Assembly: GCA_946407055.1 (NCBI GenBank) | Contig: CAMJMP010000002.1 | Location: 7,400 to 71,399, forward strand | Source: an uncultured Mycoplasmatota bacterium | Lineage (GTDB): Bacteria > Bacillota_I > Bacilli_A > RF39 > UBA660 | DNA: 64,000 nt | Reading direction: 5' to 3' | In this document: positions 26,471-63,578 of the stretch, piece by piece | Layout of the letters: each line of letters begins with the position of its first letter | How positions within the stretch are numbered: position 1 is the stretch's first letter | Notes under the pieces: model-generated | Databases searched by the model: none | What the model saw: only the letters and a program-made list of their open reading frames with translations | Told to the model about the DNA's origin: nothing | Program-made: the position numbers and the translations under genes

Positions 26471-28132
26471 TTATTTAGAGTTGCCTTTGTTTATAAATGG
26501 TAAAGTTGCTGGCAATGTTAATATTGCCTTTCTTAATGAATTCATTAACTATGGATTACTGCGTAATTGTTTAGCATATTCAGATCCATATGAATTAATA
26601 TTTTCTAATGATTCTGCTAATTCATCGTTATCCATTAAATAAAGATTTTCTTTCATTTCATTGAAATTTCCTTTTTTACTTAAATTAAATTTTAATTCAT
26701 TTAATGTAGCTCTAAGTTCTTTCCAATCATTAGAATCTTTATCCTTAATATTTAATTTATTTAAAAGTGATTTATACTTTCCTTTAATTACTTCTGGTAA
26801 TAAATTATCTGTAAAATGAGATATATTTTCATGAACTACTGTTCTGCCAATTGCTTCAGGATTTGGACCTATTTGTCTTAGATTTATAAATGTCTAATTG
26901 TTATTAGGATTAAAATATCCACCTGTTTTACTTAATTCATCAGAAAAATATAACCAAGGATTAGGAGCAGTAGTTATTTTATTATTAATAACATCTTTAA
27001 CATAATCTGTTAAAATAGGAGTTTCTGGATAATTAGTATTAAAATTATCCAATTGAGTATTTAATATATTTTTAAATCCGTTCTTTAAACCATCTGCATT
27101 AATTCGTTCTAATAATATTCCTGATATATCTGGATCATTATTCCAATTAACAATACCTTTTATTTCTGGATTTTTTATTCCTAAACTACGAGTAGCATTA
27201 TTTACTTGTTCTAAGTCTTTATATCTAATTGTTTTTGTTGCTGGAATAGGTTCTATATTTTCAAATTCACGTATTTCAGCAAATTCCTTATCCTAAGGAT
27301 TAATTATTTCATTAGAATTAGTTCTATATCTTTTAGGTAAATTATCAACAGCTTCATTTAGTTTATAAGGCTAATTAAATATAATAGGATTTCCATCACT
27401 TAAATCTGAAGAAGTTGCTGTTTTATATTCTGGAAATTCAAACGATTTAACAGATGTATCAAAACTATATTTTAATGGAGTTTGTGAATACTAACCAATA
27501 GATTTTAAAGGTCTTTTAGAAATTAATTTCTATGCAGTTTTAGTAATACCATTACCCATTATTCCTGCATCTAACAGATTAAATGCTCCACTAACTGCAC
27601 ATTGTAAATAATTTCCATTTTTAAAATTATTATATGTAGCACTTACACCTGTTTCTGGATTAGCTAAATTATATCCAGCATTTAAAGCACCTGTATATGG
27701 ATTAGCATATAATACTCCAGATTTAAGAATTGCTTTAATTGGACTTCTGTTATTTTCCCAATCTTCTTTATTTCTTAAACTAATACCTTTTATAGGATTT
27801 TGTCTAAGTTCATTTTCTTTATTAATTTCTTCCTAAGTTGGAATGTGTCCATCTTTTATTTTATAATCTTTAGGTAAAGCTTTAATAGAACCTGGATTCA
27901 TAGCCATATTCTATACAGATTTATTTATTGCCCAATTCTATCCTTCTTTTAAAGCCTTTAAATATTTAATAGTATCTGCTCTTGACTAAGACTACTATGC
28001 TGCTTGATTCTACTATGTTTTCTATGACTAAGTTCCAATAGTAGAAGTAGCTCCGTAACCTAATTTCTATTTTATAAAATCTTCAGAAGGTTTTGGAACT
28101 TTATTTCCAAACTAAAATTTACTAATCTTCAT
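26471..28132 (-). CDS. hypothetical protein (553 aa) with 18 in-frame TAG codons
   Basis: ATG at 28132 and TAA at 26473-26471 are in one frame (1662 nt). Every interruption is TAG, including two TAG-TAG doublets in a Q-rich context. No in-frame TAA or TGA seen. Contains VVHENISHF. Confidence 0.7.
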
Positions 28133-28328
28133 TTTTATTTCCTTTCCAAATACTTGTTACACTATCAACACCTAATAAACCGCAACAAGAAAGTAAAAAT
28201 ACATCTATCATTTCTGGAGCTTGTATTACTTTAATAGTACAATATATTAATATACCCATACATATTATAAATCCTAAAACTCCACATAGACGTTTACTGC
28301 TGAACTAACCATTTTCAGCACTTAGCAT
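28119..28328 (-). CDS. small membrane protein (69 aa) with 2 in-frame TAG
   Basis: ATG at 28328. Hydrophobic core LCGVLGFIICMGILIYC. Ends GAT TAG TAA, overlapping the next start. Confidence 0.5.
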
Positions 28329-28332
28329 TTCT

Positions 28333-28536
28333 CTAAACCAATTCATTTCTTTTATGAGATATATGATATTTGTTACACACTTTACATAGATAAACTATGT
28401 AATCTTTTAAATTCATTTTCTTAATATATTTAAACGCATCTTTTTCAGTTTCAAAAATTATCTTAGTTTTACCACGTTTATTATAATGACAACGTGGTTT
28501 CTTATTTTGTAGATTACTTCTTGGAGCTAATTTCAT
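28333..28536 (-). CDS. small zinc-ribbon-like protein (67 aa)
   Basis: Intact ORF. Contains C..YNKRGK ... CKVCNKYHISH. Confidence 0.6.
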   Translation of the reverse strand: MKLAPRSNLQNKKPRCHYNKRGKTKIIFETEKDAFKYIKKMNLKDYIVYLCKVCNKYHISHKRNELV

Positions 28537-28543
28537 AATTATT

Positions 28544-28723
28544 TCAAATTATATAATACCAATCATCTCTTTTCTTCTCATTATCTAAATCATATTTAAT
28601 ATAATTGCCATTCTGGAAGTATACACTCTAATTAGCATAGTCCCATTTAAAATAACCAACGTAATTTGGTAATAAGGCTGTTTTTCCTGCTTTAATTAAT
28701 TTTTCAATTTCGCTGTATTTCAT
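28544..28723 (-). CDS. DUF2829-like small protein (59 aa) with 1 in-frame TAG
   Basis: MKYSEIEKLIKAGKTALLPNYVGYFKWDYAN[TAG]SVYFQNGNYIKYDLDNEKKRDDWYYI. Confidence 0.5.
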
Positions 28724-28836
28724 AATTACGATAATAATACATATTTATTTTAAAATAACAAAATTTAACATTTAAAAATTTGATTTTGAAATTTTAAGAT
28801 ATATATTTGATTATAATTTAAAAATACAATTTATTT

Positions 28837-61337: not shown

Positions 61338-61366
61338 TTCAGATAAATTTTATATACAATAGATTG

Positions 61367-61397
61367 TGAGAGAGCATTAAGACTCTCTCACTTTTAA
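61367..61397 (+). terminator. rho-independent terminator after the capsid gene
   Basis: gtgagagag-cattaaga-ctctctcac followed by tttt. Confidence 0.8.
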
Positions 61398-61414
61398 ATG
61401 ATAATACGAAATAA

Positions 61415-62260
61415 ATGGCTAAGGAAATGAATCAATTTGAAGCAAGTAATAAAATAATACTTCGCTCAGTATACGGAAAAACAGAACAAAAATATTGGAT
61501 AGCTCCAGTTAAAGATCCTAAAACAAGACGTTATCCAGATTGTGTAAAAGAAGTAGATGATCGCGGAAATCTTATAATGACAGATGCAGAAAGAAATTCT
61601 GGTAATGTATTTCTAAGTGCTGATGAACCTATTATGGTTCAAGACGGTAAGATTTTCGATCTAACTAATCCAGTTGATGCAGCAGAATGGGAAGCTATTA
61701 AAAATAGTTTTTTAATTGCATCAGATAGATATGCTACAGATGAAAACGGAAACTCTATTATAGATGGACATATTGATAGAGTTACTCATATGCCTACTTA
61801 CGGTAGAGCAGAACTTTATGTTTATAAACCAGGTGAAGCAGCTAAGAATAAAGTTTCAAGAGCTAAACTTAAGAATACTGCTATAACTTATATTATTGAA
61901 GATTCACTTGAACATCAAGTACAAATAGCAAGATTACTTGGTAAACATATGGAACACGTTCATCACGCAGATTTAGAAAATTATCTTATTGAAACTGCAG
62001 AAAGAGATCCACAAAAGATTATCAACCTTTATCGCGGTAATGATACAGAACTTAGAATTATGTTCTATGAAGCTGTAGATAGAAAAATTATTGAGATAAA
62101 AGATGGAATTTACGTATACGATGGTTCTATTAACTTAGGCGGAACTGACGACTCTTCTATTTCTTGGCTTAAAGACGCTAAGAATAAAAAGTGGTTAGAT
62201 CGTATTACTGAAGAGGTTTATCCAGAATTTGCAAAGAAAAATAAATCAAATAAAGAATAA
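61415..62260 (+). CDS. hypothetical structural protein (281 aa)
   Basis: Intact ORF, no TAG. Confidence 0.8.
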   Translation: MAKEMNQFEASNKIILRSVYGKTEQKYWIAPVKDPKTRRYPDCVKEVDDRGNLIMTDAERNSGNVFLSADEPIMVQDGKIFDLTNPVDAAEWEAIKNSFLIASDRYATDENGNSIIDGHIDRVTHMPTYGRAELYVYKPGEAAKNKVSRAKLKNTAITYIIEDSLEHQVQIARLLGKHMEHVHHADLENYLIETAERDPQKIINLYRGNDTELRIMFYEAVDRKIIEIKDGIYVYDGSINLGGTDDSSISWLKDAKNKKWLDRITEEVYPEFAKKNKSNKE

Positions 62261-62267
62261 TTAAAAT

Positions 62268-63578
62268 ATGACTGCACGCTAGATATTTGAAGCTATGTTA
62301 GTTGAATTAAATAACACTAGTTCACCTAGCTTGCTTTTAGACGATTATAACTATTTTATCAATAAGGCTGTTGATATGTATATCAATAAGCGATATGCAA
62401 ATTATGATACCACCCAACAAACAACTGACGATTTAAGAGTACTTAAAGCAACTGCAATTTTACCTGTTAATAAAAAGGTATTTAGTGATGAAAACACAGA
62501 ATTTCATGACGCAAAATTACAGGAACTTGTTGATCTTATTAAACAAGACCAATCATTTAATGCTATGGCAGAAGTAATTCTTCCTTCTGATTATATGCAT
62601 ACTCTTAATTGTACTTGTATTTATAAAATAAATAAACAGTCTGGATGTTACGATGGCGGAGACGTTGCTAAATATGCAGCAAAACGTCTTACTGCGGATT
62701 CTTGGAGTATCATAATGAATGATTATTACAATCGTCCTACACCAAAAAATCCTTGGTATTATATACACAATATAAATACACAAACTGAACTCCCAACTAA
62801 TCCATTAAATGATAAAGATGACGGAACAGATCCTTGGGATTTAAGAAAATCTTTTACAGAACTTGAAAGACAATACGCTAAATATATTGAAGATAGTATA
62901 AAAGCTAATGTTTTAATAGTTTCAACTACAGAAAATGATGTTTTAAAAACATCAGATGGTTCTTACTGTAAAGTAGTTAAACTTGAAAATGATGCATACA
63001 CATATGTACTTGTAAATGATATTGCTTTTGCAACAGTTTATAATAAGTATGGAATTTATAATGAATTTGACCTTTATTCTGTTAATTATAGTTCAGATAT
63101 ACAAGGTGTTTATTCAGCAGGAACTAAGATAAAAACAATTAAAAAAGAAGACTTCACAAAAGATTTTCCAAGAGAAATTAAAATTGGAAATAAAGTTATA
63201 GGAGTTAATAACGTAAATACAAGTGTCGTAGAAAAAACTGCTGGAGTTCGTTATGGAAATGCATCTAAAGTTCGTATGGAAATTAGATATGGACAGGCAG
63301 ATGTATTTGAATTAAAGGGAATCGCTATTGATTATATTAAAGCTCCACAACATATTAGATTAACTAAAAATCAGATGGATTTAACTGAAGATACTTCTCA
63401 GATTATTGAATTCCCTGATTATGCATGTCAAGAGATTATAAATCAATTGGTTGCACTAGTAATGGCGAACAATGCAGATCCTCGCATACAAACTACTGTA
63501 CCAATTTCTCAGTCTATTAGTGATCCTAGTCAACAACAAGCTGCACAAGCTCGTAGACAAGCTCAACAATAGGCTTAA
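62268..63578 (+). CDS. hypothetical structural protein (436 aa) with 2 in-frame TAG
   Basis: ATG 62268. TAG at 62280 and 63570. The true stop is TAA at 63576. Confidence 0.7.

Follow-up and report, generated by a model that had tools for sequence, protein, structure and literature searches.

Gene organization of the window

The window, by which we mean the whole 64,000-nucleotide stretch of DNA analysed here, contains a standard-code block on the minus strand and a region (26471-63578) whose reading frames are interrupted by TAG. ORFs were called stop to stop, counting TAA and TGA but not TAG as stops. In the curated set, the region held 35 ORFs, 20 of which together carried 62 TAG codons in frame, with neither TAA nor TGA inside any of these frames. 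The block, the suppressor-type tRNAs and the TAG-containing ORFs are as follows.

1178-26166, minus strand: standard-code block, 25 ORFs and ~31 tRNA genes
17414-17484, minus strand: tRNA-like, possible second suppressor with ochre-type loop CU-UUA-AC
26471-28132, minus strand: 553-aa ORF, 18 in-frame TAGs (ORF and TAG positions; full-length homologues)
28119-28346, minus strand: 75-aa ORF, 2 TAGs, one the last codon before TAA (TAG kept in relatives)
28315-28536, minus strand: 73-aa ORF, 1 TAG at codon 68 (called in relatives)
28544-28723, minus strand: 59-aa ORF, 1 TAG (called in relatives)
28837-29232, plus strand: 131-aa ORF, 1 TAG at codon 124 (upstream of the suppressor tRNA, same strand)
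29449-29520, plus strand: amber suppressor tRNA(CUA) of the Bacteroidales tRNA-Gln type (ARAGORN anticodon CTA; Rfam tRNA 52.4 bits)
29593-29624, plus strand: terminator-like hairpin, 14-bp stem (terminator scan; read directly in the sequence)
32399-32620, plus strand: 73-aa ORF, 2 TAGs (L233 has a called 73-aa gene at this location)
32617-34359, plus strand: 580-aa ORF, 3 TAGs at codons 40, 43 and 63 (CAA at all three in L003, L004 and L231)
34954-37356, plus strand: large terminase subunit, terL, 1 TAG at codon 22 (phrog_6681, E = 1e-72; CAA in L003, L004 and L231)
37313-37600, plus strand: ~95-aa ORF between terL and the portal gene, 1 TAG (93-aa gene called in L233)
37597-39792, plus strand: portal protein, 3 TAGs at codons 41, 117 and 156 (phrog_6547)
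39789-45293, plus strand: 1834-aa ORF, 12 TAGs (alignment to L004)
45408-46214, plus strand: 268-aa ORF, 2 TAGs
46349-47695, plus strand: 448-aa ORF, 2 TAGs
47697-49742, plus strand: 681-aa ORF, 2 TAGs (phrog_25468)
49749-51518, plus strand: 589-aa ORF, 3 TAGs
55405-55668, plus strand: 87-aa HTH-like ORF, 1 TAG
56356-57144, plus strand: 262-aa ORF, 1 TAG
57147-57509, plus strand: 120-aa ORF, 2 TAGs at codons 35 and 41 (phrog_38431, residues 9-119, E = 2.5e-26, spans both)
57636-58049, plus strand: holin, 2 TAGs at codons 11 and 59 (Pfam PF05105 Phage_holin_4_1, residues 15-107; phrog_20732, residues 16-123)
62268-63578, plus strand: 436-aa ORF, 2 TAGs at codon 5 and the second-to-last codon

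Strand, gene content and analogy suggest that the block is early and the region late, and we use these labels in that sense. TAG was absent from 15 of the 35 ORFs of the region, including those for the major capsid protein, M15 endolysin and GT2 glycosyltransferase; plus-strand 30509-32397 (exonuclease and neighbours), a scaffold-like gene and the island 51603-55209 were also free of it. Recoding thus does not extend to all late genes.

TAG is a sense codon in the late region

When TAG was read as sense, the greedy ORF coverage of 26400-64000 rose from 69.4% under code 11 to 95.3%, with fewer and longer genes. As a control, reading TGA as sense gave a coverage of 72.3%. A looser greedy call that kept two doubtful ORFs (42 and 54 aa) yielded 21 ORFs with 64 TAGs. 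No in-frame TAG occurred in the 25 early minus-strand ORFs (4,321 codons, 114 of them Gln codons), whereas the late set contained 62 TAG against 445 CAA/CAG codons (Fisher p = 2.6e-6). As a terminator, TAG was found in one of the 25 early ORFs (1465-1908, minus strand) and none of the 35 late ORFs; TAA terminated 44 of the 60 curated ORFs, and the GC content of the genome was 30%. Four in-frame TAGs sit 1-8 codons ahead of the final stop (in 28119-28346, 28315-28536, 28837-29232 and 62268-63578) and may be terminators, former or leaky, that are backed up by a second stop. These results show that TAG is a sense codon in the late region and that the window is truly divided into a standard-code block and a recoded region.

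The original prediction had counted 62 TAGs in 19 genes; the codon number was matched, but the genes number 20 in the curated list. All of its example ORFs with their TAG counts were reproduced (26471-28132, terL, portal, 39789-45293 and holin), and the Q-rich context that it quoted, qqNQAAqqSq, was located at codons 40-49 of the minus-strand gene 26471-28132. Its remark that the recoded genes all end in TAA or TGA is true, but by construction. An artefactual origin of the in-frame TAGs, through pseudogenes, errors in sequencing or assembly, or a chimeric contig, is an idea that arises only from fragmented code-11 ORFs, with nothing specific to the window in its favour, and is practically untenable: the frames are broken by TAG alone and never by TAA or TGA, the reading frame is kept in every case, and identical TAG sites occur in assemblies made independently from different samples (L231, L233-L236).

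Alignments cross the TAG sites and favour Gln

Homologue and HMM alignments continued across the TAG sites of the portal protein, the 1834-aa and 553-aa ORFs, holin and 57147-57509. The portal protein aligned to two relatives in one HSP over residues 5-729 (~52% identity), and its three TAG sites are CAA, CAG and CAG in L001. Residues 1-1821 of the 1834-aa ORF aligned to L004 with 52.7% identity, crossing all 12 TAGs, at which L004 has 5 CAA and 2 TAG. A PHROG search of this ORF gave no match; the label 'tail protein' in the original prediction is tentative, a virion or tail role being suggested by gene position only. In holin, the codon-59 TAG was spanned by both the PF05105 and phrog_20732 alignments. 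The result for terL was divided: close-relative alignments reached the TAG at codon 22, where CAA is found, but the TerL HMM match (73-737) fell short of it. The interpretation put forward in the original prediction is thus supported, and none of the three outcomes that count against it (alignments stopping at TAG, TAA or TGA inside the joined frames, no gain in coding density) was seen.

Gln codons were the commonest ones in relatives opposite the window's TAGs, CAA/CAG accounting for 37 of 67 informative codons (55%; TAG and gaps excluded). In the reverse comparison, the window had Q opposite 52 of 139 TAGs of the relatives (window TAG and gaps excluded). The background frequency of Q was 4.2%. 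Minority residues aligned with the window's TAGs were E (7), N (6) and K (5). Among Gln-type codons, the late share of CAG plus TAG (24%) was close to the early share of CAG (28%), which fits single C-to-T changes from CAG.

The tRNA at 29449-29520 is the sole plus-strand tRNA, every other one lying in the minus-strand array 1178-23087. It folds into a canonical cloverleaf with the 7-nt loop CU-CUA-AC, a U1.U72 mismatch and A73, and its D-arm is that of Bacteroidales tRNA-Gln(UUG). The D-arm AUGGUGUAAUGGYYAGCAC, U1 and A73 were common to 40 tRNA-Gln(UUG/CUG) from a D-arm scan, most of them from Bacteroidales. L233 has an identical tRNA sequence, and in L231 and L234-L236 the tRNA occupies the same location. 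On its 3' side, the hairpin 29593-29624 faces a convergent gene (29631-30329, minus strand). No genes for RF2, GlnRS or an anti-RF1 factor were found in the window. These results show that tRNA(CUA) exists and is of the Gln type, so that the recoded genes and their suppressor do occur together, as had been claimed.

It is very improbable that TAG is read as an amino acid other than Gln (e.g., Lys, Glu, Trp, Tyr or pyrrolysine). ARAGORN labels any CTA tRNA 'Pyl', and E, N and K do appear among the aligned residues, but Q makes up 55% of the informative aligned codons against a background of 4%, and in the 553-aa gene nine of the TAG sites align with columns of invariant Q across 24 homologues. 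The suppressor tRNA itself combines a short variable arm with the U1, A73 and D-arm of Bacteroidales tRNA-Gln and is without the G-1 and C73 of tRNA-His. No Pyl-related annotation was present among the scanned ORFs. On these comparisons, Gln is the best-supported meaning of TAG.

A TAG-dense gene beside the suppressor tRNA

In the 553-aa gene, 12 of the 18 TAGs lie within the first 100 codons, and at the start of the gene TAG occupies 12 of 13 Gln codons. Its homologues align with 100% coverage and 40-58% identity, and an invariant HExxSHxTD motif is found near residues 434-442; those in L231 and L233-L236 carry 18-21 TAGs each with no other internal stop. The read-through product had already been stored by a public gene caller (P0001, 100% identity and coverage). 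Neither Pfam nor PHROG gave a match to this ORF, and its structure model was poor (pLDDT 50.8) with no fold match. Conservation of TAG in the gene was 69-100%, compared with 84-94% for surrounding synonymous codons; as it does not exceed the latter, conservation does not demonstrate selection for TAG as such. The adjacent 75-aa ORF (28119-28346) has a hydrophobic stretch that, read by eye, looks membrane-spanning, and it was called by the public gene caller in L231 and L233-L236.

The ochre-type tRNA

We also considered whether the tRNA(UUA) at 17414-17484 is a working ochre suppressor, with TAA read-through products as part of the programme. Were it working, wobble would also read TAG, and the early array would already give low-level suppression. 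The tRNA has an Rfam score of 57.4 bits, its minimum-free-energy fold is a cloverleaf with the 7-nt loop CU-UUA-AC, and it is identical in L233. Furthermore, two adjacent pairs of late ORFs share a frame with a single TAA between them, 58459-58758 and 58771-59904 being a candidate read-through fusion, but same-frame neighbours are expected by chance. The anticodon stem requires two G.U pairs, Rfam favours a tetraloop alignment, the L231 orthologue has the 6-nt loop CAUCAU, and the pattern was not found in the rest of IMG/VR. TAA is also the predominant stop (44 of 60 ORFs), and no conserved ORF requires its read-through. A crAss-like phage with a TTA suppressor but without TAA reassignment has been described (Yutin 2021, PMC7886860). 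A working ochre suppressor is therefore unlikely.

Proposed two-code model and translational gating

We consider it highly probable that the window belongs to a large, AT-rich human-gut crAss-like phage that uses two codes, with TAG, read as Gln, as a gate on late genes. We infer the following course of events. The minus-strand block (1-26.2 kb, small genes and ~31 tRNAs), being in the standard code, would be translatable on arrival of the DNA in a Bacteroidales host with the standard code. In some twenty genes for packaging, virion and lysis functions (26.5-63.6 kb), TAG stands for Gln and would be decoded by the phage tRNA(CUA); because this tRNA resembles Bacteroidales tRNA-Gln with a changed anticodon, the host GlnRS presumably charges it. 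Before charged suppressor has built up far enough to outcompete release factor 1, the recoded ORFs would be truncated, mostly in the first 160 codons, and TAG would thereby postpone late and lytic functions, acting as a gate on translation. Gating would be tightest for the 553-aa gene, which has 12 TAGs among its first 100 codons. The M15 endolysin, which has no TAG, is not gated.

TAGs in the window lie toward the 5' ends of genes, with a median relative position of 0.21-0.23 compared with 0.53 for CAA/CAG (within-gene permutation p = 5e-5 with the 18-TAG gene left out). The more distant relatives L002, L004, L005 and L006 did not show this bias. Rather than designed gating, its cause may be the cost of late truncation, or that the TAGs are young.

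The most serious alternative, which we regard as possible though clearly less probable than gating, is that the recoding is real but is no timer. In one version the suppressor mainly harms the host, read-through of host TAG stops being an anti-defence measure; in the other it is merely tolerated, TAG drifting by codon capture into genes unneeded before the tRNA is present, in an AT-rich genome that has lost its TAG stops. Both ideas have been discussed (Yutin 2021, PMC7886860, and the zeta-crAss paper). The near absence of TAG as a terminator (1/25 early and 0/35 late ORFs), the 30% GC genome, the look of TAG as a converted CAG and the lack of TAG in several key late genes all favour this alternative, as does the absence of 5' bias in relatives that are much richer in TAG (L002, for example, has 305). 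By contrast, drift alone hardly gives a TAG-free minus-strand block, the 5' bias and a gene start at which 12 of 13 Gln codons are TAG. The alternative is, moreover, compatible with the timer model.

Comparison with known recoded phages and suppressors

Recoding of TAG to Gln is already well described in crAss-like gut phages. TAG recoding as in genetic code 15 was reportedly described by Ivanova in 2014. The E. coli supE-type amber suppressor is a tRNA-Gln with a CUA anticodon that competes with RF1 at UAG and inserts Gln there. The predicted suppressor here shares its tRNA-Gln body and the change of G36 to A36 but, unlike supE, is phage-encoded and modelled on Bacteroidales tRNA-Gln; it has a U1.U72 mismatch where host-type tRNAs have U1-A72. 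What the window adds is modest: a TAG-dense leader beside the suppressor tRNA, a window-specific 5' bias and an ochre-type tRNA(UUA) of uncertain function.

The original prediction rightly noted that some gut phages are known to recode stop codons (Yutin 2021, Borges 2021/22, Peters 2022). A two-code model like the present one has been proposed (Yutin 2021, PMC7886860; Borges 2021, 10.1101/2021.08.26.457843), and code 15 in crAss-like phages is backed by peptide evidence (Peters 2022, PMC9523058). As in code-15 Crassvirales, in-frame TAG stands for Gln mainly in the structural, packaging and lysis block, the tRNA array lies in a standard-code block, a Sup-CTA tRNA is phage-encoded, GC is low and TAA is the predominant stop. 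In both, a few gene families favour TAG over CAA/CAG, one of those in Borges et al. being of unknown function. However, TerL and the major capsid protein of the window are only 22-30% identical to those of classified Crassvirales, and recoding is light (62 TAG vs 445 CAA/CAG) and 5'-biased, unlike in code-15 crAss-like phages. The suppressor anticodon arm has exact matches in 105 IMG/VR contigs, most of them crAss-sized. At 66 of these 105 loci, many on contigs of ~100 kb, the suppressor adjoins the start of a crAss-type TerL on the same strand, whereas in the window it is found 5.4 kb upstream of TerL, within a small module of its own beside the 18-TAG gene.

Zeta-group crAss-like phages have genomes of 145-192 kb, many tRNAs, introns and inteins, and two suppressor tRNAs (Yutin 2021, PMC7886860; Babkin et al. 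2025, PMC12386605). In genome features, the present phage resembles them in the size of its relatives' contigs (94-178 kb), its more than 30 tRNAs, a TAA soon after TAG at the ends of some genes, and a second, apparently unused suppressor-type tRNA, although this is ochre-type (UUA) here and opal-type (UCA) in theirs. TerL of relatives L002-L004 is likewise split by ~1.1 kb inserts, but that of the window is uninterrupted.

A search of the window against phAss-1 found no sequence similarity. phAss-1 ('Phassvirus'; Babkin et al. 2023, PMC10607447) differs in having a tape-measure protein and predicted Bacillota hosts and in not being crAss-like, but it too has TAG recoded to Gln in TerL, portal and tail genes, and several tRNA genes including Sup-CTA without a dedicated aminoacyl-tRNA synthetase.

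Gene content and affiliation of the phage

The window has a G+C content of 30% and falls into two blocks that differ in strand. Positions 1-26.2 kb are occupied by minus-strand genes, comprising ~25 ORFs, most of them small, together with a large array of tRNAs, and nearly all genes from 30.5 kb onward are carried by the plus strand. The minus-strand, standard-code part (1178 to 26166) is referred to as the early block and the recoded part (26471-63578) as the late block; we infer the timing that these names imply.

Annotated genes of the plus strand
From 30.5 kb on, plus strand: exonuclease (phrog_298)
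34954-37356, plus strand: TerL (phrog_6681, E = 1e-72)
37597-39792, plus strand: portal protein (phrog_6547)
39789-45293, plus strand: 1834-aa ORF, followed by further large ORFs
51603-55209, plus strand: island whose 790-aa protein has a GT2 glycosyltransferase domain
57636-58049, plus strand: holin (PF05105)
58046-58462, plus strand: M15 endolysin (PF08291)
59919-61337, plus strand: major capsid protein (phrog_11589)

Compared with classified Crassvirales from human faeces, TerL was 27-30% identical (E down to 1e-38) and the major capsid protein ~22% (E down to 5e-9). A nucleotide search of the phage collection returned matches to three unannotated "Bacteriophage sp." records only, all from human faeces. 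The relatives nearer than the classified Crassvirales were unannotated faecal "Bacteriophage sp." records of this kind and metagenome contigs of 94-178 kb. Judged by sequence, the window phage is a divergent crAss-like gut phage, probably of the large-genome "zeta" type to go by the contig sizes of its relatives, its tRNA load and the split TerL found in relatives. The Crassvirales signature genes for RNAP and DNA polymerase lie beyond the bounds of the window.

In three related loci, TerL is split by ~1.1-kb inserts that are intron or intein candidates (L002, 16472-21046; L003, 1609-5136; L004, 6231-9758), and split-TerL relatives include ones at 83-88% protein identity. L002 also has a split exonuclease gene; in the window, both genes are uninterrupted. 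The coding coverage of the early block is low overall (63%), and a ~1.2-kb stretch (4762-5935) that separates tRNA-Glu from the minus-strand genes next to it showed no convincing ORF on either strand and no Rfam match. Two minus-strand genes lie amid the tRNA genes. The first, at 12591-14354 in the middle of the array, encodes a 587-aa protein with DUF2828 and DUF7788 domains (phrog_850, "RNA-binding protein"), which we take to be TROVE/Ro60-like with a vWA domain and which may bind tRNA-like or Y-like RNAs. The second, at 9597-10025, encodes a PD-(D/E)XK endonuclease (PF11645, E = 2e-29), possibly of the homing type.

TAG is a sense codon in the late block

The original prediction held that TAG is a sense codon in the late, virion and lysis genes, whose fragments under the standard code (code 11) lie in one frame. 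The fragments indeed fused, with TAA and TGA as the only stops. The 553-aa ORF at 26471-28132 (minus strand; hereafter the 18-TAG gene) contained 18 TAG codons, the 1834-aa ORF 12, the portal gene three, the holin gene two and terL one, exactly as predicted. The total of 62 TAG codons was likewise reproduced, but these were spread over 20 genes rather than the 19 first counted. Our curated late set comprises 35 ORFs, 20 of them with TAG, and has no in-frame TAA or TGA. A rise in coding density had also been anticipated. With a home-made greedy caller of non-overlapping ORFs (not MgCod or Prodigal), treating TAG as a sense codon raised coverage of 26.4-64 kb to 95.3%, from 69.4% under code 11, and gave longer genes in smaller number; the TGA-sense control reached 72.3%. 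TAA-sense coverage was uninformative, since in DNA this rich in AT it rises artificially in both halves of the window. For annotation, this means that roughly a quarter of the late region passes for non-coding under code 11 and that terL, the portal and holin genes and the 1834-aa putative virion gene look broken, all of which is repaired once TAG is read as Gln.

The early set (25 minus-strand ORFs, 4,321 codons, 114 Gln codons) had no in-frame TAG, although TAG was frequent in the other two frames of the same ORFs (103 and 50). The early and late sets, the latter with 62 TAG and 445 CAA/CAG, differed significantly (Fisher p = 2.6e-6). These results indicate that recoding is confined to one block, the presumably late one, with TAG in 20 of 35 ORFs there and in none of the 25 early minus-strand ORFs. 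The sole early ORF that ends in TAG (1465-1908, minus strand) has a second in-frame TAG two codons on and a TAA seven codons after that, an arrangement that looks like a back-up against suppression.

Furthermore, homologue and HMM alignments crossed the TAG sites, and none stopped there where its span reached. Portal residues 5-729 aligned as one HSP to two related loci, L001 and L002, the first of which is essentially unrecoded and has CAA, CAG and CAG at the three portal TAG sites. The 1834-aa ORF aligned to L004 over residues 1-1821, and the 18-TAG gene had dozens of full-length homologues at 40-58% identity. HMM alignments spanned the holin TAG at codon 59 and both TAGs of the ORF at 57147-57509. 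The TerL HMM match (73-737) falls short of TAG codon 22, at which close relatives carry CAA. A stored public protein, P0001, equals the read-through product of the 18-TAG gene (100% identity and coverage), so an independent code-aware gene caller had arrived at the same reading.

The late block contains a 3.6-kb TAG-free island (51603-55209), which encodes a 123-aa membrane protein, a 265-aa ORF and the 790-aa GT2-domain protein. The genes for the major capsid protein, a scaffold-like protein (58771-59904) and the M15 endolysin are TAG-free as well.

TAG corresponds to glutamine

When eight related loci were pooled, the positions opposite window TAGs held 44 TAG, 37 Gln, 7 Glu, 6 Asn, 5 Lys, scattered other residues and 5 gaps. 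With TAG and gaps left out, Gln codons accounted for 37 of 67 positions, compared with a background Q frequency of 4.2%. In the reverse comparison, the window had Q at 52 of 139 TAGs of the relatives (window-TAG and gap positions left out). In an alignment of 24 homologues of the 18-TAG gene (A1), nine TAG sites fell in columns with invariant Q. CAG made up 28% of Gln codons in the early set and 13% in the late set, where CAG and TAG together reached 24%, which fits an origin of TAG from CAG through single C-to-T changes. We are highly confident that TAG is read as Gln through the tRNA(CUA) encoded at 29449-29520 (plus strand). In other crAss-like phages, recoding has been supported by peptide evidence (PMC9523058).

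The suppressor tRNA and its surroundings

The suppressor tRNA(CUA) scored 52.4 bits with the Rfam tRNA model. Its 7-nt loop, CU-CUA-AC, is standard; the acceptor end has a U1.U72 mismatch, the discriminator is A73 and CCA is not encoded. The "Pyl" assigned by ARAGORN is a mere label for the CTA anticodon. Bacterial genomes were scanned with the D-arm of the suppressor (AUGGUGUAAUGGUCAGCAC) as a probe, which yielded 40 tRNA-Gln(UUG/CUG), mostly from Bacteroidales (Prevotella, Bacteroides, Porphyromonas and others). The D-arm is identical in the suppressor and these tRNAs, which typically have U1-A72 and A73, so that U1 and A73 agree as well. The scan also yielded tRNA-His of candidate-phyla-radiation (CPR) bacteria with the same D-arm, which was ruled out as the type, since its G-1 and C73 are absent from the suppressor. 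On these sequence features, tRNA(CUA) is identified as a Bacteroidales-type tRNA-Gln body with a CUA anticodon, presumably charged by the host GlnRS.

The 17-nt anticodon arm of the suppressor was identical in 105 IMG/VR contigs, and the four commonest tRNA variants of that set (66 of 108 copies) also had U1.U72 and A73. A crAss-type TerL was present in 66 of these IMG/VR loci; in every one of them it shared its strand with the suppressor, which lay roughly where TerL starts (median projected distance, 44 nt). Among the tRNAs of the window, the suppressor alone lies outside the minus-strand array; two small plus-strand ORFs (28837-29232 and 29201-29437) precede it, and a terminator-like 14-bp hairpin (29593-29624) follows on its 3' side. 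Five related loci (L231 and L233-L236) repeat the order tail-lysozyme gene, tRNA(CUA), two small ORFs, divergent gap, three or four small ORFs and TAG-rich ~550-aa gene. Promoter matches around this module were not above shuffled controls, with a tool that omits Bacteroidales-type and phage-RNAP promoters. No Pfam or PHROGs match to RF2, GlnRS or an anti-RF1 was obtained among the ORFs scanned (all of at least 250 aa included) in the window, which is part of a genome.

The tRNA array and an ochre-type tRNA

Within the array (1178-23087), ARAGORN detected 30 tRNAs, or 32 with short inserts allowed, and the Rfam gathering score confirmed 29. The 32 tRNAs represent 18 amino acids. Neither tRNA-Gln nor tRNA-Tyr is present in this part of the genome; their genes may be located outside the window. 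Two tRNAs carry inserts in the anticodon loop.

tRNA genes with anticodon-loop inserts
22986-23087, minus strand: tRNA Gly-CCC with a 27-nt insert (Rfam, 46 bits)
17572-17689, minus strand: tRNA Ile-GAU with a ~41-nt insert (Rfam, 43 bits)

Both were missed by ARAGORN unless introns were allowed, both are conserved in the related locus L233, and their inserts are below group I intron size.

Two stop-codon anticodons occur among the window tRNAs, CUA and UUA. The latter belongs to a tRNA-like sequence at 17414-17484 (minus strand; Rfam, 57 bits) with an ochre-type loop, CU-UUA-AC. In minimum-free-energy structures, the only folding evidence used, it formed a canonical cloverleaf with a 7-nt loop and an anticodon stem that needs two G.U pairs; in the Rfam alignment, a tetraloop appeared instead. 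L233 carries an identical sequence, but in the L231 orthologue the loop has 6 nt (CAUCAU). The body of the window sequence is like that of the neighbouring tRNA-Thr(CGU) and unlike tRNA-Gln, and the exact anticodon arm was absent elsewhere in IMG/VR. TAA recoding through this tRNA was rejected: no conserved ORF requires TAA read-through, and the late block reaches 95% coverage without in-frame TAA. Two pairs of late plus-strand neighbours share a frame and are separated by a single TAA (58459-58758 and 58771-59904; 51603-51974 and 51978-52775), probably by chance; were TAA ever read through, these pairs would fuse.

The 18-TAG gene

TAG accounted for 12 of the 13 Gln codons among the first 100 codons of the 18-TAG gene, whereas its share of Gln-type codons was ~12% (62/507) in the late set as a whole and ~9% when this gene was left out. 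The protein had no match in Pfam or PHROGs. Its AlphaFold model, built from the 24-sequence alignment, was poor (pLDDT 50.8) with an unstructured N-terminal 230 residues, and a Foldseek search against the PDB with this model gave nothing below E = 0.5. An HExxSHxTD motif at residues 434-442 of the protein was invariant in A1 and hints at a metal-dependent enzyme, as a lead only. Four TAG-preferring families have been described in crAss-like phages, one of them "of unknown function" (Borges et al., 10.1101/2021.08.26.457843). Selection to keep TAG in the 18-TAG gene was considered and dropped: TAG was conserved at 69-100%, compared with 84-94% for neighbouring synonymous codons. Its conservation does not exceed that of its surroundings because the N-terminal region is nearly identical in DNA across all relatives obtained.

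Position of TAG codons and possible mode of action

In the window, the median relative position of TAG within genes was 0.21, compared with 0.53 for CAA/CAG. With the 18-TAG gene left out, the bias persisted (within-gene permutation p = 5e-5), and 31 of 43 TAGs lay within the first 160 codons. No 5' bias was seen in the more distant relatives L002, L004, L005 and L006. The trend in L231 and L234-L236 was owed mostly to the 18-TAG homologue, which that test kept in. Generality of the bias was therefore dropped, and it is treated as lineage-specific.

In the gating model of Yutin 2021 (PMC7886860) and Borges 2021/22 (10.1101/2021.08.26.457843), host machinery would translate the standard-code genes at once. 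The suppressor, once made and charged, would compete with RF1 at TAG, and suppression would then allow full-length packaging, virion and lysis proteins to be made. Two features of the window fit such a role, namely the early placement of TAG within genes and the TAG-dense leader of the 18-TAG gene. As a caveat against blanket gating, however, the endolysin, the capsid protein and the TAG-free island are all without TAG. On balance, we lean slightly towards a regulatory purpose of recoding. An anti-host role or codon capture would be compatible with such a purpose.

That the conserved suppressor module is a dedicated code-switch timer seems unlikely to us. This reading as a whole would take in the tail-lysozyme gene, tRNA(CUA), five small ORFs (two on the plus strand, three on the minus strand) and the 18-TAG gene. 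The output of the 553-aa protein would then vary with approximately the 18th power of suppression efficiency, and the protein would act as an ultrasensitive "point of no return" sensor for a late function. A further level of stop-codon suppression might come from the ochre-type tRNA(UUA) of the early array. Regulation by recoding remains our preferred reading, and the window could be used to test the idea of "recoding as lysis timer", especially via the 18-TAG gene beside the tRNA.

Comparison with known recoded phages

The window shows every testable feature of a code-15 (TAG = Gln) phage. TAG recoding, its restriction to late genes and phage-encoded suppressor tRNAs are already in print, as are a preference for recoding in certain families, back-up TAA stops behind TAG and TTA-type suppressor tRNAs without TAA reassignment (PMC7886860, PMC10607447, PMC12386605, 10.1101/2021.08.26.457843). 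By itself, the window raises no new question. We found no counterpart in that literature for several details of modest weight: the placing of the tRNA in a module of its own that includes a TAG-dense leader gene, the shift of TAG towards gene starts, the U1.U72 mismatch common in the suppressor family and the CAG-to-TAG accounting. Likewise, no description of a positional or dosage logic of recoded codons, including a 5' bias, was found in these papers. In Jade and Lak phages (Borges et al.), the code-change module includes a release factor and/or an aminoacyl-tRNA synthetase, whereas neither RF2 nor GlnRS was found among the ORFs scanned in the window. The window presents a clean and compact case of a known strategy, with a standard-code block and its array, a set-apart Gln-type suppressor and the recoded packaging, virion and lysis genes all within 64 kb.
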